Shown here in pieces: positions 3,877-15,548 of a stretch of DNA of 27,956 nt (within the stretch, counting starts at the first letter, position 1; each line of letters starts with the position of its first letter). Made by a program: the position numbers and the translations under genes. Under the pieces are notes generated by a model. That model was not told the origin of the DNA, did no database searches, and saw only the letters and a list, made by a program, of their open reading frames with translations. This DNA comes from Thermofilaceae archaeon (GTDB taxonomy: Archaea; Thermoproteota; Thermoprotei; Thermofilales; Thermofilaceae): assembly GCA_038727095.1 (NCBI GenBank), contig JAVYWK010000024.1, positions 1 through 27,956 on the forward strand. Direction: 5' to 3'.

Positions 3877-5271
3877 ATGAACGCGAAAAAAGCGTTCCTT
3901 ATCGTGATTCTCGTATCGGTTGCACTAGTTCTCGCGCCTAGCTATGCAAGCCCTGAAGTAAAACCGGATCCAAACGTAAAGTACGAAGATACACTCGTCA
4001 TAATCACACCTACGCAAGCTGACCTGCTTAACGCTGTTGTACAAGGTTTCAAGGATTACGTGAAGAGGGAGCTGGATTTTGATCTCAACGTGCAATTGAT
4101 CCGTGTTGGGTCTCCAGAGGCGATGAACAGGATTATAGCGTGGGCTGGACGACCTGAAGCTGACATATTCTATGGGGGTGATATAATCTACCACTGGAAG
4201 CTGAAAAGCCTAGGTCTTTTGGAATCCTACAAGCCGCGATCCCCGTATTATGACAGGTTGCCGAGCAGTTATCGGGGCCTCCCCATAAAGGATCCCGATG
4301 AAATGTGGCATCCAAAGCTTTGGTGGGGGCACGGCTTCATGTACAACACTGAGGTTCTAAGAAGATTCAACTTGGAGCCTCCGAAGAGCTGGGATGAACT
4401 GTTGGATCCGAAGTGGGAGGATTTGATCGTGATGTGCACTCCCTCCAGGTCGTCGTCAACCTACATCAACGTGATGATAATCATCCAGAACAGGGGGTGG
4501 GATGAAGGTTGGGGCTACTGGAGGCGGCTTGCAGCGAATGTTGGCGCTTTTGTCCCTAGAAGCCACGATGTGCTAGAGCTCGTCTCAAAGGGTGAGTACG
4601 CGGTTGGCTTCATCTACGCGCAGGGTGTCGTGCTGAACAAGGCGAAAGGCTATCCCGTTGCAGTGTTCATGGATCCAACCGGCTTCATCGTCAGTGGAGT
4701 CTCGCTCTTGAAGGGTGCACCCCACCCCAACATCGCTAAGCTCTTCCTGGACTGGTGGTACACGCCTGAAGCTCAGAGCATAGCGCTCAGGTTCGGCGGT
4801 ATCCCCGTGCTCCCAGAAGTGGTCATAGAAGGAGAAGAAGGCACTCCAGGCGCCATACTGAAGGAGTACATGGGTGGTAAACGCAACGTGTACGAGTACC
4901 TCGACACGTTCGCAAACGTCAGGTTCTACAACTTCACATTCGCCGAGCAGGCATTTGCCAACGTTAGTAAGATTTTCGACGATACGATAGTCGCACGTCA
5001 CAACGAGCTAAAGGAGGCGTGGAAAACGATTCGTTCGGTGGAGGAGACTGTTGAGGGCATCTCAGCTGCAGAGGAGAAGCTAAAGTCGGCCGTCAAGGCA
5101 TTCGATGCGGGCGATTACGCCACAGCTAAATCTTTAGCTCTAGAGGCTGAGCAAGTAGCTGCTGGAGAAAGAGCGAGGATACAGATGATGACGCAGGCAG
5201 CAATAGTAATCGTTGTTATCGCGGTAATAGCTGCTGCGGTATTCGTCGTAGTGAGGCGTAAGCGCAAGTGA
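3877..5271 (+). CDS. ABC importer solute-binding protein, AfuA/FbpA-like, with signal peptide and C-terminal membrane anchor
   Basis: N-terminal signal peptide. PEADIFYGG, YNTEVL..PPKSWDELLDPKW, TPSRSSST, GEYAVG and LLKGAPHPNIAKLFLDW are typical of this SBP class. Ends in a TM helix plus RRKRK. Confidence 0.88.
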   Translation: MNAKKAFLIVILVSVALVLAPSYASPEVKPDPNVKYEDTLVIITPTQADLLNAVVQGFKDYVKRELDFDLNVQLIRVGSPEAMNRIIAWAGRPEADIFYGGDIIYHWKLKSLGLLESYKPRSPYYDRLPSSYRGLPIKDPDEMWHPKLWWGHGFMYNTEVLRRFNLEPPKSWDELLDPKWEDLIVMCTPSRSSSTYINVMIIIQNRGWDEGWGYWRRLAANVGAFVPRSHDVLELVSKGEYAVGFIYAQGVVLNKAKGYPVAVFMDPTGFIVSGVSLLKGAPHPNIAKLFLDWWYTPEAQSIALRFGGIPVLPEVVIEGEEGTPGAILKEYMGGKRNVYEYLDTFANVRFYNFTFAEQAFANVSKIFDDTIVARHNELKEAWKTIRSVEETVEGISAAEEKLKSAVKAFDAGDYATAKSLALEAEQVAAGERARIQMMTQAAIVIVVIAVIAAAVFVVVRRKRK

Positions 5272-5302
5272 ACTGTATTAGTAATGGTAAATATACCCTC
5301 CA

Positions 5303-5314
5303 TTTTTCCCTTTT
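5303..5314 (+). terminator. Oligo-T tract after the SBP gene (possible partial terminator)
   Basis: TTTTTCCCTTTT lies between the SBP stop and the AGGTGA SD of the ATPase. Confidence 0.35.
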
Positions 5315-5335
5315 AAGTGATAAGGTGAATACCCC

Positions 5336-6403
5336 ATGGTTAGAGTGTCCGTTAGAAACCTCTGGATGAGGTTCGGAGATGTCACAGCCTTGAAGAATAT
5401 CAGCCTTGAAGTAAATGAGGGAGAGCTGGTCACTCTTCTGGGGCCGAGTGGATGCGGGAAGACTACACTGCTTAGGATTATCGCCGGGCTCTATAAACCG
5501 ACGAGCGGGAGGGTTTATTTCGATAATGAGGATGTAACTGATAAACCTCCATGGGAGAGGAACGTTGGCCTTGTTTTTCAGGATTACGCGCTCTGGCCTC
5601 ACATGACGGTCTTCGACAACATAGTTTATGGGCTTAAAAGGCGCGGTGTACCTAAGAGCGAGATTAATGAACGAGTAGAGAATGTTTCCTCACTCTTGGG
5701 AATCTCGGAGCTTCTCAAGCGCTACCCTCACCAGTTGAGTGGAGGGCAGCAACAGAGAGTAGCTCTGGCCAGGGCTCTAGTGATCAACCCGAGTGTCCTA
5801 CTGCTGGATGAACCGTTGAGCAACCTTGACGCTAAGATACGCGTTAACGTTCGGACAGAGATAAGGAAGCTACAGAAGAAGCTTAAGATCACCACCATCT
5901 ACGTCACCCACGATCAGGAGGAGGCGCTGGTGCTCTCGGATCGCGTAGCCGTCATGAGGATGGGGGAGGTGGAACAGGTAGGAACACCCTTCGAAGTGTA
6001 CTACAACCCAGGGAGCGCATATGTCGCCGATTTCATCGGCCAAGTGAACATGCTTCAGGGAGAGGTACGCTCCACGCGTGAGGGTGAGGTACTCCTCGAA
6101 ACTGCAATTGGACCTCTGCTAGCTCGCAGCTACGATGCCTTCCAGCCCGGATCCAAGGCTTATGCTGTCTTTAGGCCAGAATACGTCGAAGTTCTGAGAG
6201 AGCCAAGTGACGATTTCAATGCGTTCCAGGGGGTCGTTGATGTCATCCAGTTTCTAGGGAACATGGTTAGAGTAGAGGTTCGCATAAACGATGTACCACT
6301 GAAGGTGGAGATACACAAGCCGCTCAATTTCAAGCTGCCTCAAGTTGAGGAGAGAATCTACTTAAGGGTGCCTCCTGAGCATATAAGAGTCCTATCAAGA
6401 TAG
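5336..6403 (+). CDS. ABC importer ATP-binding protein (PotA/AfuC/FbpC type) with C-terminal TOBE-like domain
   Basis: GPSGCGKT, FQDYALWPHM, LSGGQQQR, LLLDEPLSNLDA and YVTHDQEEA. SD AGGTGA upstream. Confidence 0.95.
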   Translation: MVRVSVRNLWMRFGDVTALKNISLEVNEGELVTLLGPSGCGKTTLLRIIAGLYKPTSGRVYFDNEDVTDKPPWERNVGLVFQDYALWPHMTVFDNIVYGLKRRGVPKSEINERVENVSSLLGISELLKRYPHQLSGGQQQRVALARALVINPSVLLLDEPLSNLDAKIRVNVRTEIRKLQKKLKITTIYVTHDQEEALVLSDRVAVMRMGEVEQVGTPFEVYYNPGSAYVADFIGQVNMLQGEVRSTREGEVLLETAIGPLLARSYDAFQPGSKAYAVFRPEYVEVLREPSDDFNAFQGVVDVIQFLGNMVRVEVRINDVPLKVEIHKPLNFKLPQVEERIYLRVPPEHIRVLSR

Positions 6404-8193: not shown

Positions 8194-8916
8194 ATGCGTG
8201 TCAGCGATTTGCGGGGACGGTTCTTCATCGTTGCGCACAGGGGGGCGAGCGGCTACGAGCCTGAAAACACCCTGAGAGCGGTGCGGAGAGCCATCGAGAT
8301 GAGAGTCGATGCTGTAGAGGTTGACGTGAGGGTGAGCAGAGATGGAGTTCCCGTTGTGATACACGACGAGAGCTTGGAGAGGACTACGAGCGGGCGGGGC
8401 ATGGTCAAGGATATGACTGTGGCTGAGCTGAGGAAGCTGGACGCTGGTAAGGGTGAGAGAATTCCCTTGCTGGAGGAGGTTCTCGATGAGGTGAAGGGAA
8501 AAGTGGTGCTTTTCCTCGAGTTGAAGGAGGTGGAAGCTGTAGTGCCTTCGCTGCGCCTCGTAGAGGAGCGCAAGATGCTTGATCAAGTGCTATTCATCTC
8601 CTTCGATAAAGTAGCATTATCGACTGTTAAGGCGAGGGTGCCCGAGGCGCACATAGGCCTCATCTACGTTAGACCAGAGGGGGGAATTGTCGAGGCGAAG
8701 CGCTTGGGCTGCGAGTTCGTGCTTCCGCATTACCGGCTGGCGACGGAGAAGGCCGTCGCTTTCGCCCATAGGATGAAGCTGTTGGTTGTAGCCTGGACGG
8801 TGGACGATCCGGCGCTAGCGGCCGAGCTGAAAGGTAGGGGGGTGGACGGCGTCGCATCAAACTACCCTGACCTGATCATTCCGCTCCGTGGGTATACTGG
8901 TATATCGATACATTGA
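8194..8916 (+). CDS. Glycerophosphodiester phosphodiesterase (GDPD, UgpQ-like), cytoplasmic
   Basis: VAHRGASGYEPENT, VEVDV, VVIHD, LELK, WTVDD and GVDGVASNYP. No signal peptide. Confidence 0.95.
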   Translation: MRVSDLRGRFFIVAHRGASGYEPENTLRAVRRAIEMRVDAVEVDVRVSRDGVPVVIHDESLERTTSGRGMVKDMTVAELRKLDAGKGERIPLLEEVLDEVKGKVVLFLELKEVEAVVPSLRLVEERKMLDQVLFISFDKVALSTVKARVPEAHIGLIYVRPEGGIVEAKRLGCEFVLPHYRLATEKAVAFAHRMKLLVVAWTVDDPALAAELKGRGVDGVASNYPDLIIPLRGYTGISIH

Positions 8917-8930
8917 TATACCGGTACACC
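8891..8930. promoter_or_regulatory. 40-bp imperfect inverted repeat, probable vapBC operator/promoter
   Basis: GGTATACTGGTATATCGAT-AC-ATTGATATACCGGTACACC: 19-bp arms matching at 16/19 positions, ending 13 nt before vapB ATG 8944. Confidence 0.7.
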
Positions 8931-8940
8931 GCTTTCGCTC

Positions 8941-9189
8941 TTGATGGCGAAGAAGACTGTTGCAGTTACGGAGGAGACTTACAAGATCCTTGTAGAGTTG
9001 AAGCAGAAGATGGGTTGCAGAACGATGGATGAAACGGTGAGAAGGTTGGCGGAGCTCTCCAAAAGGGCTCTCGCCGTCGAAGCGCTGGAGCACGTGAGAA
9101 GCAAGCAGCTGAGCAGGGAGGAGGTTGAAGCTCTAGCTAAACTGAGAGAGAGACTGAGGGAGGAAGGTGTGTGGTTGAGAAGATCGTAG
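8941..9189 (+). CDS. vapB: VapB-type antitoxin (ribbon-helix-helix-like N-terminus); probable start ATG 8944
   Basis: 82 aa. KTVAVTEETYKILVELK...MDETVRRL fits a strand-helix-helix pattern, and the gene overlaps the downstream PIN gene. Confidence 0.8.
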   Translation: MMAKKTVAVTEETYKILVELKQKMGCRTMDETVRRLAELSKRALAVEALEHVRSKQLSREEVEALAKLRERLREEGVWLRRS

Positions 9190-9566
9190 TCGATACAAAC
9201 ATCCTAATCGACATCTTTGAGCGAGGAAACGAGAGGCTCCTGCTGAAACTCCTGGAGTTTGAGGTGTTTGTACCCTCCGTCGCCCTCTATGAATACCTGT
9301 GGGGGTACCTCTACATCGGCCGCGATTACCTGAGGGAGAAGGAGCTAATCGAGAAACTCTTCGCAGTTGTTTACCCCGACCAGCGGATCACGCTCAAAGC
9401 GATGGAACTGGAAGTTCAACTCAGGAAGCAGGGATTCTCAATCCCACAGGCTGACGTTCTAATCGCAGCAACCGCTCTCACACTCAATGCCCCGCTACTC
9501 TCCAGAGACCTGGAGCACTACGAGAAACTGAGGAACTTCGGGCTAAAAATCCTCACCGAACTGTAG
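9171..9566 (+). CDS. vapC: VapC PIN-domain toxin
   Basis: IVVDTNILID, ALYEYLWG, ADVLIAATA and LLSRDLEHY contain the PIN acidic residues. 131 aa. Confidence 0.93.
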   Translation: MVEKIVVDTNILIDIFERGNERLLLKLLEFEVFVPSVALYEYLWGYLYIGRDYLREKELIEKLFAVVYPDQRITLKAMELEVQLRKQGFSIPQADVLIAATALTLNAPLLSRDLEHYEKLRNFGLKILTEL

Positions 9567-9974
9567 CCGCCTACCAACAATATTCATGCTGCTGCTAACC
9601 CGTTAAGCAGTCTCCACACTCAGTGCACACGATATTGTAAGCTCCTCACACCCGATCATAAACATCGATCAGCGGCTCTGGAAAATTTCAGGAAGCAGAA
9701 GACCACAAATTATCGAAAAATTCAATTTATTAAACTCGATATTTCCCATAAAATTGCTAACATAGTGTAAACTACAAAGTCGCTTAATATTGATAAAAAT
9801 AGATTAAAAATAAGTTTATAAGTACCGAAAAATAATAAAAAACAAAATTAATATGAATTAACTTAATTTAGAAACAATAAAGAATCTCTTGAATTATAAA
9901 ATAAATTTTTAGATTTATTTTATTCTTAACTTTTAAAGATTATAACCTTAAAATTCTCTCAGGTAAAATCTTGA

Positions 9975-9988
9975 GAAAAATTTATATA
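9975..9988 (+). promoter_or_regulatory. BRE-TATA promoter (GAAAAA-TTTATATA) of the YbjN-like / zinc-ribbon / PrsW operon
   Basis: Consensus archaeal BRE plus TATA, ending about 28 nt before GTG 10017. Confidence 0.7.
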
Positions 9989-10016
9989 GGCTATTTTTAC
10001 CATCTTATCGAAAGAT

Positions 10017-10466
10017 GTGAAACCCGTAAAAATTGGCGATATAGAGGGATGGTTAAAAGAAAAGAATATAAAATTTGAGAAAGCTGGTCAAACTATAGTT
10101 ATTCCTTTTGAATCCACGCTTGTCGCTATTAGGGAATTTTCATGGAAAGAGGGTTTAAATATTATTGAGATAATTGCTACGGTAGCTGTAGAAGTTAAAC
10201 CTAGCCTCGACCTCTTCAGATTTCTCCTCGAGAGGAATGCTGAAACTCCTTTCGGGAAATTCACTTTTGTTGAAAAGGGATTGGACATGAAACCGACGGT
10301 ATTCTTTACGCACTCCCTTCTAGGCGCAAAACTCGATAAAATCGAGTTTGAAGAAGCTTTGAACACCATAATCAGTTTTGCAGATTTCTACGATGAGAAG
10401 ATTGCGGAACTTGGACAAGGGAAAACTTTTAGGGATTATTCAAAAGAAAAAACTGGTGGAAAGTAG
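10017..10466 (+). CDS. YbjN / type III secretion chaperone-like fold protein
   Basis: 149 aa and soluble. LFRFLLERNAETPFGKF, FFTHSLLG..LD..EF and ADFYDEKIAE.GQGK resemble YbjN-family members. Recognised by eye only. Confidence 0.6.
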   Translation: MKPVKIGDIEGWLKEKNIKFEKAGQTIVIPFESTLVAIREFSWKEGLNIIEIIATVAVEVKPSLDLFRFLLERNAETPFGKFTFVEKGLDMKPTVFFTHSLLGAKLDKIEFEEALNTIISFADFYDEKIAELGQGKTFRDYSKEKTGGK

Positions 10467-10783
10467 TGTCTAAAACTCTCGGTACGGTATTAATAATTTT
10501 AGGAGTCTTCGTTCTACTTTTCATCAACATTCTCCTAGGCATACCCCTGATTATAGCCGGCTTTTACCTCAGAAGGAAAACCCAACCCCCAGCCTACATG
10601 CCCCCACAGGCCCCCTACGGTTTCTACTACCCGCAACCGGTTCAACCTCCACCACCGCCGCCACCACCTCCCGTCCAACAGCAGCAGCCGATGGTTGCTC
10701 AACGCTACGTTTGCCCGAACTGTGGTCAACTACTATCGGGGCGCGAATCCTACTGTCCACGTTGCGGCGTACGGTTATCGTAG
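10466..10783 (+). CDS. Small membrane protein: N-terminal TM hairpin, Pro/Gln-rich linker, C-terminal zinc ribbon
   Basis: About 30 hydrophobic residues, then RRK, a poly-Pro run and CPNCG-x8-CPRCG. Its start overlaps the upstream stop (TAGTG). Confidence 0.8.
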   Translation: MSKTLGTVLIILGVFVLLFINILLGIPLIIAGFYLRRKTQPPAYMPPQAPYGFYYPQPVQPPPPPPPPPVQQQQPMVAQRYVCPNCGQLLSGRESYCPRCGVRLS

Positions 10784-10801
10784 ACGGCTGGTGTTCTTAT
10801 C

Positions 10802-11935
10802 ATGGCCTCTGTAACTTGCTGGAGTTGCGGTCAGCAGAACGATTCGAGGAACCTTTACTGCATCAATTGTGGTCAACCCTTACGTGCTAAGATGTGCCCA
10901 AGCTGCGGGCAACAGGTGCAGGTGAACGCTAACGCATGCCCACGTTGCGGCTACTCGTTCCAGCCTCAAAGCCTTTCAGCCTACAGGTATTCGATGAACC
11001 AATCAACCCCTTACGTTGAACCGAGCTTTACTCCGCGGAGAAGCCTCATTGAAAATGTTAAATTGATTCACAATTTAATCTTCAGTAAAAGACCCCCGAT
11101 ATATAGGGCTTCTCAGGAGGTTTATGGGAGGCTACCATGGTCTACCATAAATTCGTCTGGAAAGTACCTCAACTATGCCCTATTTTCGATCCTGGCTGGA
11201 GTCGGGCTTGTCTTCCTCATATCCCTCACCGAGGGGGTGGTCGATTACTTCGTCGTAGCGTTTGTAACAGCGATCATACCAGCTTTAATGTACTTGCTCT
11301 GGATGAGCAGGAACGATAGGTTCGAGCCTGAACCAGCATGGATGATAGCTCTAGCCTTCGGTTGGGGGGCTCTCTCAACACTTCCAGCCATAATACTAAA
11401 CGATCTTACCTTTTCCCTAGTAGGGGGTTGGAGCGGGGTAGCGGGATTGACAGAGGAGCCGTCAAAGATGCTTGGTGTTTACCTTATGGCTGTAAGCCCC
11501 AACCTGAGAAACGAGTTTAACGATCACCTTGATGGTCTAATCTACGGCGCAGCTGCAGGGTTGGGTTTCGGCTTCGTGGAAAACATCCTGTATATTACGC
11601 GGCTAGTCGGTGAGAACCCACTGATCATCGGGATCAGAGCCATAACGATAGGCATGCACATGTTCTGTACAGGCCTCATCGGCTGGTGGATGGGCTACTT
11701 GAAAGTTCACGGTATAAGCATCAACCTCACAAACATTCTCCCCGCTTTAGCCTACTCCGCAACACTCCACATGTGCTGGAACACAATAGGCAGTTTCGAA
11801 TACTTGAGCCTGATAGTCTTCATAGCTGGCCCAATACTGGTCTTATACCTCAATAAAATGGCTAAAGAAGCTTTGATCGATGAGTACTACTGGGGCTTCG
11901 CATCAGGCTACGCACCCGTCGAGATGACAAGATAA
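10802..11935 (+). CDS. PrsW-family membrane protease fused to an N-terminal double zinc ribbon
   Basis: N-terminal CWSC/CINC/CPSC/CPRC. PrsW motifs: DRFEPEP, TEEPSK (EExxK), DGLIYGAAAGLGFGFVEN (FxxxEN), GMH and LHMCWN (HxxxN). Confidence 0.9.
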   Translation: MASVTCWSCGQQNDSRNLYCINCGQPLRAKMCPSCGQQVQVNANACPRCGYSFQPQSLSAYRYSMNQSTPYVEPSFTPRRSLIENVKLIHNLIFSKRPPIYRASQEVYGRLPWSTINSSGKYLNYALFSILAGVGLVFLISLTEGVVDYFVVAFVTAIIPALMYLLWMSRNDRFEPEPAWMIALAFGWGALSTLPAIILNDLTFSLVGGWSGVAGLTEEPSKMLGVYLMAVSPNLRNEFNDHLDGLIYGAAAGLGFGFVENILYITRLVGENPLIIGIRAITIGMHMFCTGLIGWWMGYLKVHGISINLTNILPALAYSATLHMCWNTIGSFEYLSLIVFIAGPILVLYLNKMAKEALIDEYYWGFASGYAPVEMTR

Positions 11936-11992
11936 AATACCCTTTAATCTCACTTTTTAGCATTAAGATTTAGTAAAATTAATTAAAAATTT

Positions 11993-12529
11993 TTACCATT
12001 CTTTCGTGTAAACTCTTGAAGCGAGCTTAGCAGCTACATAGCTGTAGCAGGGTGAGCCCGTGTGCTTTACCGATTTCTCCCCTATGATGTGCACCACCTC
12101 CACATCCGTCGCGGTGAGCGCGTCAGCGATGAACTGCCTGTGACAGTACTCGGGTTTCCCCTCCCTGCAGATGATCAGCGGGGCCAAACCTTCGACAGCC
12201 ATACCCCGTATCAGCGATAAGGCCCTGAGAGCTTGGGGCTCGGTCGTCAGGTAGACCACGTACGACTGGAATGTTGGCGAGCTAGTGCACGTCACGGGTT
12301 CTGCAACCCTGTACCTCTTGCTCAAACCAAGCGCCCCGAGCTCGCCGAGCCAGACGTATGAGACCCCGACCCGCTCCAGCTCCGCTCTCAGGTTCTCACC
12401 GGTGTAGAAGCTGACGCTCGAGCGGGGGAACCTGCGCACGTCAACCACCACCCTGCAGCCGAGCTTTCCCACTATCTCGAGGAAGCGCTCAGGCTTTACA
12501 CCCCCGTAACCGAGCGTGTACGCTCGCAC
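11993..12529 (-). CDS. DUF488 family protein
   Basis: YTLGYG, VVDVRRFPRS, Y.WLGELG, CREGKPEYCHRQFIAD and VVHI match the DUF488 pattern. Confidence 0.85.
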   Translation of the reverse strand: MRAYTLGYGGVKPERFLEIVGKLGCRVVVDVRRFPRSSVSFYTGENLRAELERVGVSYVWLGELGALGLSKRYRVAEPVTCTSSPTFQSYVVYLTTEPQALRALSLIRGMAVEGLAPLIICREGKPEYCHRQFIADALTATDVEVVHIIGEKSVKHTGSPCYSYVAAKLASRVYTKEW

Positions 12530-12578
12530 CGCGTAGAAGCGGTATGGCTAGAAAAAGAGTTTCACTCCCGAGTAGCGC

Positions 12579-15548
12579 TCAACCGTAGAGGACTGCTCTT
12601 AGACCTTTGAAGCCGAAGGGTCTCAGCACGTACTCATCGATCCAGTGGGCTTCGTCGGTGAACGTCTCGGGGCCCGTCCACGCGGGGTCCCCGCCCGCGT
12701 AGTGGAGTGGTCCGAAGAGGTTCCTCAGCGTCCCGACGAGCACAACCCTGACATCGTTGACGCCCGGCTTCACTAAGCCCGTGACGTCCACTTCGAAGGG
12801 GGGTAGGAAGACCTCCCCTGCTCTGCCCCCGTTGACGTAGACCTCGGCTAGCGCGGCGTTCAACTCGCTGAACCTCAGCGCGACCCGCTTCGCAAGGCTT
12901 GGGAGCTCGAAGCTCCTCCTCAGCTCCACCGAGCCAGCGTAGAAGGGTAGGCCTTCGCGGCAGAGGTCGGAGGCGTCGACGATCCTCCTCTCCTCCACGA
13001 TCCGCGAAGCCCCTCTAGGCCGCGGCTCCACTCCGAAGCTGCCGAAGATGTAGATGGGCTCCAGCTCCGGTTCAACACCAACCGTGCCCGACAGCTCGAC
13101 CGTGTTCACCCCTTGGACCAGCAGGCTGGATGCATCAGCAACCCCAAAGCTCGGGTCGAACCAGCTCCTCTCCCAATCCGTCACCGGCTTACCGTTCACT
13201 TTAACATCGTAGAGGTGCGGCTGCTCCAGCACCAGTTTTGCGCCCGTAGAGGCGGGCTCGGCTAGGCACTCGAACTCGAACTTGAGAGCGAAGCACGTAC
13301 CAAGGCCCTTGGTCGAAATCAACCTTTGCGCGCGCCAAACGGGTAAAACATCGCTCCATGATCCTCCGTCAACGCTGAACCTGCAGTAGTCCAGGACGAG
13401 CGCGTTGGGCTCCAGCCTCTTCAACTCCCAGCCGCTTTCGCTAATAGTCACCTCGAGCACCGGCTTGAGCTTGGGCTCCGGCGGCAGTGGTTCACCCCGG
13501 GTAAAGCGTATCAAGGTTGAGCCAATAGGAGGAAGCTCCAGCTCAACCCACGTCCTCGCTCCGCTCTCCCGCGCCCCGAGGTCGCGCACCTCGCCTGTGA
13601 ACGCGTTCCAGAGTTCCGGCTTCCACGCTCCTTCAATGCCTATTCTCAAGCTCCTCGAGGCTGCTCTATCCGTGTTCGCCAGGAAGAGCAGCAACCCGTC
13701 GTCCAGCTCCCTTAAGTGGTAGAGGACAGAGCCCTCGGGGTCGCCCTCGATCAAAACGGGCCTCGGGACGCCTTTCAGAGCCTCCTCCAGCGAGCTCCTC
13801 TCCAAGGGTACGAGCTTCGCTTGGCTCACGAGATCCTTTAGCTCGCTGGACGGCACGCCCTCAACCCTCTCGGGTGGGGTTCCCGTGAAGATGAGAGTGC
13901 CACCTGCCCTCGCGAACTCGGTGAGCAGCTTGAGGGTTGTGGAGGCGATTGTGACGCTCGGCGGCACTATCACCGCGTCGTACAGCGCCCTCCCCACCCT
14001 CAGCTTGCGCCCTTCGACGGACGAGTGTTTCGCCATGATCGTCTCGTCGCCCAGCTCGAAGTCGATGTGTAAGGCAAGCAGCTCCCTCAGCAGCTTCCCG
14101 AGGCTCTCGTCGAGCTCTGCAACCCTCTTCTCGGCCAACGGCGTGTAGAGAGCCCAAGCGCTCCCGATCGGGTGAACGACTAGGACGTTCGCCACCCTGA
14201 CGCCCCGCGAGAGAGCGTAGCTGAGCCTGGCGAAGTAGTCCTCGATTAAGCGGTTGTACCTCCACCAGGGCTGGGCCCAGTGGAAGTTGAGGCCGTAATC
14301 CCGCTTCCGCCTACCCCTCAGCGAGTAGGGGAGTAGGTGGTGGTTGAGGAGGTTAACGCCGAGCGCGTAGAGGAAGTCGCCGATCCACTTCCGGTCGGCG
14401 AAGGTAGGGCAGTTGCCGGTGCAGCCGTACGTCTCGCAGAGCACGCGCTCCCGCCCCAGCTGGTTGGCTACGCTCGCCACCTGCTTCGCGGTCAGCAGGC
14501 TGCCCCAGATCTGGAAGCCCAGGTGGTCGATCCCTGGCACGTGCTGGTACTCGTAGTGGGGCATCACTGCGCCCGCGCACTTCAACTGGCTCAGGAGGCT
14601 ATCCTCCGCAAGGTAGTGGCCGGTGAACTTCAAGCCGTGCTTCTCGCACCACTCGTAGATCTGCCGGGAGAAGGCTTCGACGAACAGCAGCGTCACCGTC
14701 CTCCAGAAGTCGTACCGGGTCTTGAGGTAGTCCCCCAAGTCGAAGATGAGCTCCGGTAGCCTCCCCACGATGTCGTAACCGTTCAGCTCCCTAAACTTCT
14801 CCGGTAGCCTCCCGGTCCAGGGCAGGGAGACGGCTGGGAAACGGGGGCCGCGCGGCGGCAGCTGTACGCGGGGGTGGGGTCTGCTCGACTCGATGTTCGG
14901 CTCGTCTGTAAAGACCCCCGGTATCGTGCGCCCGAACTCCTCCCTGAACCTCAGGTACGGTTCGTAGGCCTCCTCGATGAACAGCTTCACGGCGCCCCGG
15001 TCTAGGAGGTCTACGTAGCAGAAGCCCTCGTACCAAGTCTCGCCCGGCTGCGCGACGTACTCGACGAACGTCAGGTACAGCGGAGCTTTCCCCGCTTCCC
15101 CGGCTTCCGCCCTCTCATAGCGGATCGGAACACCTCTTTCGTCTAGGTGCACCCGGAAAGCGGCGACAACGCGTGGACCGCTGAACGCCCTCTCCGACGC
15201 GACGGCGACGAGTGCTTTAGCCGCTGCTCCAGGGTCGCGTGCCGGCACGAGCCCTCCCGCGAAGCCGGAGGGCCATCTCAGCTCGTCGTACATCCAGATG
15301 TAAGCGCCCAACCGCTTCGCAGCCTCGACAGCAGCCCTGAAGGCCTCGAACCACTCTTCGCCCAGAAATAGGGTGACTAGTCCCTCTCTCGCATGGAAGA
15401 ACGCTCCGCCGAAGCCGGCGTCAACCATCCTATCGACCTGCCTCGCCACCTCCTCCGGGTCCAGCTTATCGTTGATCGACCAGAAGGGGGCGCCCCTGTA
15501 CTCCATCGGGGGTTCCGCGAAGAGTTTAGGGTCGAGCACGCAGCTCAA
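12579..15548 (-). CDS. Large cytoplasmic glycoside hydrolase, GH106 (alpha-L-rhamnosidase)-like; probable start GTG 15539
   Basis: PFWSIN, GFGGAFFHAREGL, WMYDELRWPSGFAGG, GVFTDEP, FTGHYLAE, PGIDHL, AKQVASVA and CETYG, followed by C-terminal beta-sandwich segments (GLPFYAG, AEVYVNG). No signal peptide. Substrate uncertain. Confidence 0.75.
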   Translation of the reverse strand: MSCVLDPKLFAEPPMEYRGAPFWSINDKLDPEEVARQVDRMVDAGFGGAFFHAREGLVTLFLGEEWFEAFRAAVEAAKRLGAYIWMYDELRWPSGFAGGLVPARDPGAAAKALVAVASERAFSGPRVVAAFRVHLDERGVPIRYERAEAGEAGKAPLYLTFVEYVAQPGETWYEGFCYVDLLDRGAVKLFIEEAYEPYLRFREEFGRTIPGVFTDEPNIESSRPHPRVQLPPRGPRFPAVSLPWTGRLPEKFRELNGYDIVGRLPELIFDLGDYLKTRYDFWRTVTLLFVEAFSRQIYEWCEKHGLKFTGHYLAEDSLLSQLKCAGAVMPHYEYQHVPGIDHLGFQIWGSLLTAKQVASVANQLGRERVLCETYGCTGNCPTFADRKWIGDFLYALGVNLLNHHLLPYSLRGRRKRDYGLNFHWAQPWWRYNRLIEDYFARLSYALSRGVRVANVLVVHPIGSAWALYTPLAEKRVAELDESLGKLLRELLALHIDFELGDETIMAKHSSVEGRKLRVGRALYDAVIVPPSVTIASTTLKLLTEFARAGGTLIFTGTPPERVEGVPSSELKDLVSQAKLVPLERSSLEEALKGVPRPVLIEGDPEGSVLYHLRELDDGLLLFLANTDRAASRSLRIGIEGAWKPELWNAFTGEVRDLGARESGARTWVELELPPIGSTLIRFTRGEPLPPEPKLKPVLEVTISESGWELKRLEPNALVLDYCRFSVDGGSWSDVLPVWRAQRLISTKGLGTCFALKFEFECLAEPASTGAKLVLEQPHLYDVKVNGKPVTDWERSWFDPSFGVADASSLLVQGVNTVELSGTVGVEPELEPIYIFGSFGVEPRPRGASRIVEERRIVDASDLCREGLPFYAGSVELRRSFELPSLAKRVALRFSELNAALAEVYVNGGRAGEVFLPPFEVDVTGLVKPGVNDVRVVLVGTLRNLFGPLHYAGGDPAWTGPETFTDEAHWIDEYVLRPFGFKGLRAVLYG

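Follow-up and report, generated by a model that had tools for sequence, protein, structure and literature searches.

A YbjN-fold protein, an anchored zinc-ribbon protein and a PrsW-family protease encoded side by side in a Thermofilaceae archaeon

Three packed genes and their products

We analysed a 27,956-nt stretch of DNA from a Thermofilaceae archaeon (contig JAVYWK010000024.1; the window hereafter, with the source genome labelled G000), which carries three adjoining genes that an initial annotation had put forward as a candidate system for regulated proteolysis. As given by the list of open reading frames (ORFs), gene A (10017-10466, +) encodes 149 amino acids (aa) from a GTG start, gene B (10466-10783, +) encodes 105 aa, likewise from a GTG start, and gene C (10802-11935, +) encodes 377 aa from an ATG start. 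Their predicted products are a YbjN-fold protein (A), a membrane-anchored, proline-rich zinc-ribbon protein (B) and a PrsW-family protease with an N-terminal double zinc ribbon (C). The tight coupling that had been noted for these genes is confirmed: A and B overlap by 1 nt (base 10466 is shared with the stop codon of A) and 18 nt separate B from C. Shine-Dalgarno (SD)-like GGTG motifs lie 7-8 nt 5' of the B and C starts (for B, GGTGG at 8 nt).

Gene A matches the Pfam family TY-Chap1 (PF22551; 35.7 bits, cut-off 27) and, marginally, YbjN (PF10722; 23.0 bits, cut-off 22). Its AlphaFold model (pLDDT 92.1, pTM 0.86) has an alpha-beta-alpha class I fold, for which Foldseek returned YbjN (6vu7), AmyR (5fr7) and DR_1245 (4h5b) as the top matches in the Protein Data Bank (TM 0.59-0.66 among the top ten). 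ExsC and SicP, class I chaperones of type III secretion systems (T3SS), were also matched, all five of these proteins with a probability of 1.00, as were chaperones solved with wrapped clients, e.g. SicP-SptP. The YbjN/T3SS-chaperone fold originally suggested for the 149-aa protein is therefore upheld by both the model and the structural matches. No hydrophobic segment was found in a hydropathy scan, and on the basis of the model we assign the gene A product as a cytoplasmic YbjN/TY-Chap1 (T3SS class I chaperone-like) protein. TY-Chap1 is defined in its source as a peptide-binding chaperone family with kinship to T3SS chaperones and YbjN (PMC9503650). In the AmyR paper, unstructured client chains wrap the chaperone dimer (PMC5398634), and a 2026 review describes the YbjN branch of the T3SS-chaperone fold as widespread and understudied (PMC13466201). 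A profile search with gene A recovered 1,021 superfamily representatives at E<=0.001, within which its own cluster is narrow (profile score 231 bits for this cluster and 126 for the next).

Gene C is the sole match to PrsW-protease (PF13367) in G000, scoring 96.0 bits (cut-off 23.5) over residues 177-342 (11330-11827, +), and also matches DZR (PF12773) with 43.8 bits (cut-off 27.3). The double zinc ribbon occupies residues 1-55 (10802-10966, +), with four CxxC pairs at residues 6, 20, 32 and 46. The predicted catalytic core contains E218-E219, E260-N261, H286 and H323...N327, which fall within TEEPSK (217-222), GFVEN (257-261, with F258), H286 and LHMCWN (322-327). These positions and an alignment bear out the earlier observation that all four PrsW motifs are retained, in what we take to be their exact form. 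The motifs are kept in 5/5 aligned full-length orthologues and in two shorter paralogues, and are lost in one further paralogue. A simple hydropathy scan gave five hydrophobic stretches in residues 121-355, of which two overlap and one is about 50 residues long; PrsW proteins are described as having four motifs and, in most members, about eight helices (Zhang et al. 2012, PMC3482391). Against the PrsW equivalog model NF033739 (RsiW site-1 protease) the score is 61.9 bits, with a cut-off of 225. Judged by these profile scores, gene C encodes a PrsW-family glutamic-type protease (MEROPS M82) that is not the Bacillus subtilis equivalog.

Gene B has a single hydrophobic stretch of about 30 residues close to the N-terminus (hydropathy windows of 19 residues that exceed the threshold cover residues 1-36), followed by an RRK basic patch and a 70-residue tail with 19 Pro, 10 Gln and 6 Tyr that ends in CPNCG-x9-CPRCG. 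The initial annotation had read it as a membrane-tethered zinc ribbon, which agrees with this predicted arrangement of an N-terminal anchor and a C-terminal ribbon. The ribbon of B matches only generic zinc-ribbon families and lies under the Pfam cut-offs (Zn_ribbon_3, 23.4 versus 27). Hence the PrsW-protease, DZR and YbjN domain calls hold above the Pfam cut-offs, and that for the ribbon of B is upheld through its orthologues, such as the one on metagenome contig L041 (Zn_Ribbon_1, 31.4, cut-off 25). The double-ribbon and zinc-ribbon families considered were PF12773, PF13240 and PF13248. Nine ribbon residues (C83, P84, N85, C86, G87, C97, P98, C100 and G101) are invariant in 6/6 aligned members. 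Because the orthologues have a central Gly, Trp or Pro in the hydrophobic stretch of the alignment, the anchor is probably a helical hairpin whose two ends face the cytoplasm. A role like that of RsiW, the membrane-bound anti-sigma factor, is not supported for B, in which Pfam and hydropathy searches revealed neither an extracytoplasmic part nor an anti-sigma (ZAS/zf-HC2) domain. The best score for B in a protein atlas search was 0.82, which is under the meaningful level. A complex prediction for a dimer of A with full-length B, run without controls, gave scores of 0.52, 0.02 and 0.02 against a mark of 0.32 and is given no weight in either direction on binding.

The ribbon of B (CPNCGQ...CPRCG) had been said to resemble closely the second ribbon of C (CPSCGQ...CPRCG). 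This is literally true (46% over 28 aa), but the resemblance is not a special one. In a whole-genome search B did not match the ribbon of C at E<=0.01, and B does match the ribbons of unrelated proteins of ~330 aa in other genomes, with E down to 1e-6, so the likeness is generic. At the nucleotide level, the CPRCG codons of B (10754-10768) and of ribbon 2 of C (10937-10951) are identical at 14/15 positions. This could reflect chance or local sequence exchange, and is too short to interpret.

The window contains one exact match to RNWAAWTTTAWATA, which we take to be the consensus of a B recognition element (BRE) with a TATA box. This match (GAAAAATTTATATA; 9975-9988, +) stands ahead of the three genes, in line with the promoter originally reported; 0.08 matches are expected by chance, and 8/100 shuffles of the window had at least one. 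A distance of 28 nt separates the end of the match from the gene A GTG, which implies that the gene A mRNA would be leaderless or nearly so, given the predicted transcription start. Hot-spring metagenomes of several studies contain the stretch, and parts of it turn up in two metatranscriptome runs. A single contig of 1,621 nt from RNA run X12 (depth 72.4) spans 10020-11640 across the A/B and B/C junctions, and smaller pieces extend to 11942. The X12 contig has 77 differences from the window, which suggests that it comes from a strain about 5% diverged in which the three genes are ordered identically. Past 11942 the depth of the RNA library drops from 47-72 to 0-1.3; it is 0 at 9773-9954, 0-1.3 at 11957-12138 on the DUF488 side and 8-13 further out, and two DNA runs cover 30/30 bins. 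Given this sharp contrast with the flanks, the A-B-C cassette is likely expressed; contigs show neither RNA ends nor strand, and DNA may occur in an RNA library. The packed ORFs, the promoter match and the RNA-library contig across both junctions all fit an operon-like layout. A second RNA run, X15, was set aside because its single 188-nt contig over the A/B junction (depth 4.8) is too little to serve as evidence.

Among the strain differences listed (39 of 120), 25 are synonymous and 14 non-synonymous, with synonymous:non-synonymous counts of 10:9 for A, 9:3 for B and 6:2 for C. By these counts the three genes are under purifying selection, and the ratio for B suggests that this low-complexity ORF behaves as a real gene.

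Conservation of the A-B pair and the surroundings of PrsW genes

Gene A was found in 4/41 relatives (G000 included) and in 4/120 genomes of the class, all of them Thermofilaceae. It is adjacent to B in 5/5 contexts, namely the window, G007, G005, G013 and L041. The two genes overlap by 1 nt in both the window and G007 and by 4 nt in G005, and are 5 nt apart in G013; on metagenome contigs L041 and L042 the gap is 1 nt, provided that the start of B is the same ATG as in P0013. The B gene of G005 is cut at 94 aa by the contig end, that of G013 is visible for 42 aa only, and contig L043 repeats the G007 context. In a collection of 5.8 billion proteins the A family has 11 members (three of them distant, at ~31% identity) and the B family seven (one of them weak). 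Members of the two families match in pairs by the size of the longest contig listed and are thus co-distributed. As B directly follows A wherever A occurs, gene order indicates that the conserved unit is A+B and not A-B-C. In a 225-aa database protein, P0005, the A sequence continues directly into a hydrophobic, Pro-rich segment resembling that of B. We rejected it as an A-B fusion, since its B-like part is out of register at the start and has an abnormal end; it probably stems from a frameshifted assembly.

The A-B promoters of G007, G005 and G013 (L037:3130-3175, L023:728-775 and L025:585-640, all on the - strand) share GGTTAAACC-N6-7-GATAWATA, the G005 form of which is AGTTAAACC. This element, possibly an operator beside the TATA box, is absent from the promoter in the window.

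Full-length orthologues of gene C were identified in six other genomes among the 40 nearest relatives (G012, 53% identity; G007, 49%; G013, 49%; G016, 48%; G011, 44-59%, split over two contigs; G005, 38%), and identity ranges from 38% to 57% over all searches. Four genomes of the same genus have ribbon-level matches only. All four genomes with A-B also carry a zinc-ribbon PrsW orthologue, and no A or B gene adjoins any gene C orthologue in the six other genomes. Three contexts show which gene follows B, and in two of them it encodes an intramembrane protease, PrsW in the window and, on L041, a convergent rhomboid 114 nt from B (PF01694, E=1.5e-24), two unrelated families. Of ~2,490 non-nested ORFs in G000, one matches PrsW and two match rhomboids, so that, by a rough post hoc calculation of our own, protease neighbours in two of three contexts lie far above chance expectation.

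The neighbours of zinc-ribbon PrsW genes were then compared with those of other protease genes. A neighbouring ORF was counted if it was 60 aa or longer, lay no more than 1.5 kb away and had either CxxC...CxxC at its C-terminus or 9 or more Pro within 30 residues. Such a neighbour is present at 7/12 zinc-ribbon PrsW loci, at 1/9 loci of ribbonless PrsW paralogues and at 0/7 rhomboid loci (Fisher test, 7/12 versus 1/16 controls, p=0.004; the ribbon-only matches L017-L020 were left out of the controls). The background in G000, calculated from contigs of at least 8 kb only, is 17.4% of 1,289 focal genes, or 4.4% by the ribbon criterion alone, and binomial tests against it give p=0.0017 for either criterion and p=0.0014 for ribbons only (4/12). 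In G012 the neighbours form a trio (L063:7124-8818), two of them PRC-barrel/Pro-rich/ribbon proteins and the third a membrane protein that terminates in a ribbon, in G011 the neighbour is a multi-pass membrane protein with a C-terminal ribbon, and in G005 a PRC-barrel/Pro-rich/ribbon protein (L064:4713-5162) lies 2.5 kb from PrsW. No ribbon-tailed or Pro-rich neighbour was found at the G007 and G016 PrsW loci. Each genome has 6-11 Zn_Ribbon_1 matches, of which 5/11 in G012, 3/9 in G013 and 3/6 in G011 lie at the PrsW locus, the protease's own two counted. Elsewhere in G007 (G007:C53:3137-4304), a cluster of three similarly sized Zn_Ribbon_1 ORFs is unlinked to PrsW.

At the G013 locus (L060), a PrsW paralogue (4982-5863, -) without the Glu-Glu and both His motifs is likely a pseudo-protease. 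Its gene overlaps by 4 nt that of a 283-aa protein (4134-4985, -) with an N-terminal hydrophobic segment, a Gln/Tyr-rich linker and a C-terminal zinc ribbon. This pair is divergent from the active zinc-ribbon PrsW gene.

A sample of 401 genomes of the phylum yielded five more genomes with a gene C orthologue. In the family labelled f25, three of the four orthologue-bearing genomes (G445, G295 and G325; L072, L073 and L074) share a four-gene cluster by PrsW (e.g. L073:3156-4751). The cluster encodes a 117-aa soluble protein of no Pfam family, a protein of ~105 aa with hydrophobic segments and a Pro-rich tail that has no ribbon, a 76-aa hydrophobic protein, and a membrane protein of 203-231 aa with a Pro-rich linker and a ribbon-like end (CPSCG...WCP..KYV). 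Its gene order is soluble-then-anchored, as in A-B. We do not consider these proteins relatives of A and B: the 117-aa protein has an hhalign probability of 0.14% with gene A and an unusable model (pLDDT 46.1), and the Pro-rich membrane protein gave no BLASTP alignment with gene B, so that the likeness is architectural only. Together, the rhomboid of L041 and the neighbour enrichment in two distant archaeal families indirectly link proteins like B to intramembrane proteases.

These observations lead us to favour, tentatively and with a little less than even confidence, the reading that A-B is a conserved chaperone-tether pair lying in one expressed cluster with a signalling-type PrsW, and that B is a substrate or other target of the protease. 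On genomic context, a role for B as substrate or adaptor is plausible. A number of findings weigh against this reading. The initial annotation had envisaged a three-gene system, and the neighbourhood check did not find this system conserved: in G007, G005 and G013, three of the four genomes having both, the A-B pair and the PrsW orthologue do not share a contig, and their neighbours differ. The gene after B in G007 is an unrelated 360-aa ORF, and gene A was not found in G012, G011 or G016 despite the presence of the protease (G011 is 80% and G016 57% complete). Co-occurrence at the genus level is not significant (three A-bearing genera among the five PrsW-bearing genera of nine; p ~0.12 by our own arithmetic). 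The rhomboid gene of L041 converges with A-B instead of running in the same direction, and in the Thermofilaceae genomes no linkage of rhomboids to A-B is seen. A regulon shared by A-B and PrsW was rejected, as GGTTAAACC is upstream of no PrsW gene in the examined loci. The neighbour enrichment is moderate and not decisive, being based on crude ORF criteria, and p rises to 0.011 when ~5/9 contexts are treated as independent. Several of the tailed PrsW neighbours are soluble PRC-barrel proteins, which are barred as intramembrane substrates, and B, unlike RsiW, is essentially without an extracytoplasmic part. The RNA-library contig spans the genes without proving a single transcript.

The separation of A-B from PrsW would be expected if A-B were a self-contained module, made up of a chaperone-like protein and a tethered zinc-ribbon client or handle that involves no proteolysis, with the juxtaposition and co-transcription of PrsW incidental to the assembly of a foreign cassette. 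That the closest relatives of the genes differ is consistent with this explanation, A being nearest to G005 (62%) and C to G012 (53%, against only 38% for G005). It accounts less well for the two intramembrane proteases of unrelated families, rare in G000, among the three visible genes after B, and for the enrichment of similar-tailed proteins at PrsW loci in two distant archaeal families. The 18-nt gap with its SD-like GGTG and the RNA-library contig over the junction also argue for deliberate co-expression. We regard an incidental association as rather unlikely.

The nature of the neighbours raises a different alternative, in which B would be a regulator or adaptor that docks on the DZR or the linker of the protease and gates cuts of other substrates, with A modulating the docking. 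A docking or regulatory role is favoured for some neighbours because the soluble PRC-barrel/Pro-rich/ribbon proteins of G012 and G005 could not be cut within the membrane. The conserved f25 neighbour with a Pro-rich tail and no ribbon implies that the tail may be the recognised element, and the dead PrsW paralogue of G013, operonic with a ribbon-tailed protein, suggests binding without cleavage. Fused cytoplasmic domains of PrsW proteins have been proposed to sense signals (Zhang et al. 2012, PMC3482391). However, the similarity between the B and C ribbons is generic and A-B is mostly unlinked to PrsW, and we find docking alone a distinctly unlikely account of B.

Flanks and history of the cassette

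The three genes lie within a variable cassette (9580-12001). The sister species G002 has 96 nt in its place, and a population that co-occurs with the cassette-bearing one skips it. G002 is the closest relative (its DUF488 gene product is 95% identical), and its alignment with the window covers 8206-9579 and 12002-12656; in G001 and G003 the GDPD gene of the flank lies immediately beside DUF488. Within the 96 nt of G002 is a relic (62 nt, 79% identical) of the final codons of C at 11866-11926. The cassette, or C at any rate, was therefore already there in the ancestor that G000 and G002 share, and G002 lost it later by deletion. In DNA run X1 a joint from 9576 to 12002 has a depth of 107, beside the cassette-bearing form at depth 24-31. 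Since forms with and without the cassette co-occur in nature, the cassette is dispensable. GC content at third codon positions is 0.66-0.82 in the flanking genes, but A has a value of 0.36, B of 0.53 and C of 0.57, so the cassette is foreign by composition. Both its dispensability and the difference between A and the other two genes, which hints at a composite cassette, are points in favour of an incidental juxtaposition of A-B and PrsW.

The AT-rich spacer upstream of gene A (9567-10016; 450 nt, 28% GC) contains no ORF of at least 50 aa, and no Rfam family or tRNA was found in it. It is the left part of the segment absent from G002, whose alignment ends at 9579. The spacer evidently differs between strains, because DNA contigs of two runs break or branch within it, with loose ends at 9706, 9828, 9848, 9900 and 9955. 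Just 3' of the gene C stop codon, a T-rich tract (TTT ... TTTTT; 11943-11958, +) is a possible archaeal terminator. An 18-nt imperfect direct repeat (83%; 9993-10010 and 11989-12006) brackets A-B-C, its right copy overlapping the 3' end of the DUF488 gene; the repeat is too short and AT-rich to be more than a weak candidate for a target-site duplication. Directly left of the cassette lies a toxin-antitoxin pair of VapB (ribbon-helix-helix type) and VapC (PIN) at 8941-9566, which is kept in G002 and is absent from G001 and G003, where GDPD adjoins DUF488.

The low GC content, the variable presence among close relatives and the VapBC pair next door are features that a mobile defence or addiction element would share, and an anti-virus role had been raised at the outset. 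The searches lend no support to that role. With PADLOC-DB 2.0 the sole match was to A and was not significant (E=0.016, 12.3 bits); B and C had none. Signs of mobility were also sought, and neither a tRNA nor an integrase nor any convincing repeat bordering the cassette came to light. A viral origin was rejected, as a search of IMG/VR contigs brought up no relative of gene A and only one distant (26%) relative of PrsW. VapBC is also present in G002, which is without the cassette. The wider window encodes ABC transporters, a GH3 and a GH106-like protein and GDPD (Pfam and other searches), and with these transporters and glycosidases it is a sugar and peptide uptake locus, not a defence island. 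We consider a defence or addiction element highly improbable.

Possible mechanism and relation to known systems

If B is indeed a target of the protease, as we tentatively prefer, the components could act in the following way. A would bind the extended tail of B, much as class I chaperones wrap unstructured client segments. B would keep A, or A complexed with the tail, tethered at the membrane, with its disordered Pro/Gln/Tyr-rich tail and ribbon facing the cytoplasm. The zinc-ribbon PrsW, or in another lineage maybe a rhomboid, would cut or control the anchored protein, and release or removal of the cytoplasmic part would constitute a regulated-proteolysis switch. A bolder version holds that A-B with an intramembrane protease is the archaeal counterpart of a sigma/anti-sigma release switch, in which cutting of the anchor, rich in helix breakers, by PrsW or a rhomboid frees A or the A-tail complex onto a cytoplasmic target, and the DZR of TACK-archaeal PrsW recognises a class of Pro-rich, ribbon-ended tails. 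We regard this version as improbable in its full form.

The closest precedent is the PrsW/RsiW/sigma-W system of B. subtilis. The order of sigW and rsiW is mirrored by that of A and B, and to our knowledge archaea are without sigma factors. Both systems have a PrsW-family protease with the same catalytic motifs and a small, anchored candidate partner with a cytoplasmic, presumptively zinc-binding part, whose gene directly follows and overlaps that of a soluble protein. Unlike RsiW, B has neither an extracytoplasmic site-1 domain nor a ZAS domain; C carries an N-terminal DZR and falls short of the equivalog cut-off (61.9 bits versus 225), and its gene is linked to the A-B pair in G000 only.

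The architecture of C, a small cytoplasmic domain joined to a PrsW core, is the same as that of the bacterial PrsW fusions to PilZ, cyclic nucleotide monophosphate (cNMP)-binding, FHA and Zn-ribbon domains, which were predicted to be signalling peptidases and are distinct from toxin-processing PrsW proteins (Zhang et al. 2012, PMC3482391). Those predictions concern bacteria and, in the parts of the paper drawn on here, name no substrates or partners, whereas our analysis adds archaeal candidate partners (PMC3482391). Among archaea, HVO_0408 of Haloferax volcanii is a PrsW homologue whose function and targets are listed as unknown in a 2022 review, which also describes the natural targets of archaeal membrane proteases as scarcely known (PMC9263693). 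HVO_0408 is euryarchaeal, no zinc-ribbon fusion or partner is reported for it in the sections of that review cited here, and we set it beside C by description only (PMC9263693).

For the A-B pair, the nearest relatives in structure are the YbjN family (Escherichia coli YbjN, Erwinia AmyR and Deinococcus DR1245) and the chaperones of class I T3SS pairs (SicP-SptP and ExsC-ExsE), with which A shares its predicted fold. We know of no T3SS in archaea, and of no membrane-anchored zinc-ribbon client described for the YbjN family. As in class I chaperone-client pairs, the gene for the chaperone-like protein is tightly coupled to that of a partner with an unstructured segment, and DR1245 is reported to have a defined protein partner, DdrB. 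A differs from the YbjN family in that its clade is narrow and distant from most of the family, and in its proposed client, an anchored zinc-ribbon protein. Membrane-tethered cytoplasmic zinc modules as possible handles for soluble partners are also represented by ZitP of Caulobacter and GltJ of Myxococcus, membrane proteins that carry a zinc-finger domain for recruitment on the cytoplasmic side; these are bacterial, have no homology to B and differ in domain order, the ribbon of B being C-terminal.

No description of a YbjN-like/zinc-ribbon/PrsW module was found in the titles or abstracts of the literature searched. The architecture of the protease is known; neither the A-B pair nor the grouping of ribbon-tailed or Pro-rich proteins around PrsW genes of archaea seems to have been described. 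The locus offers a small, clonable trio in which client binding by a YbjN-fold protein can be studied together with the cutting or docking of a tailed membrane protein by a zinc-ribbon PrsW, and the clustering of tailed proteins with PrsW orthologues in two distant archaeal families provides a lead beyond one genome. Should the link to PrsW be incidental, what is left is an undescribed two-gene module of narrow distribution. If the release-switch reading is true, an archaeal PrsW would for the first time have a substrate class, and an archaeal YbjN-family protein a defined client.

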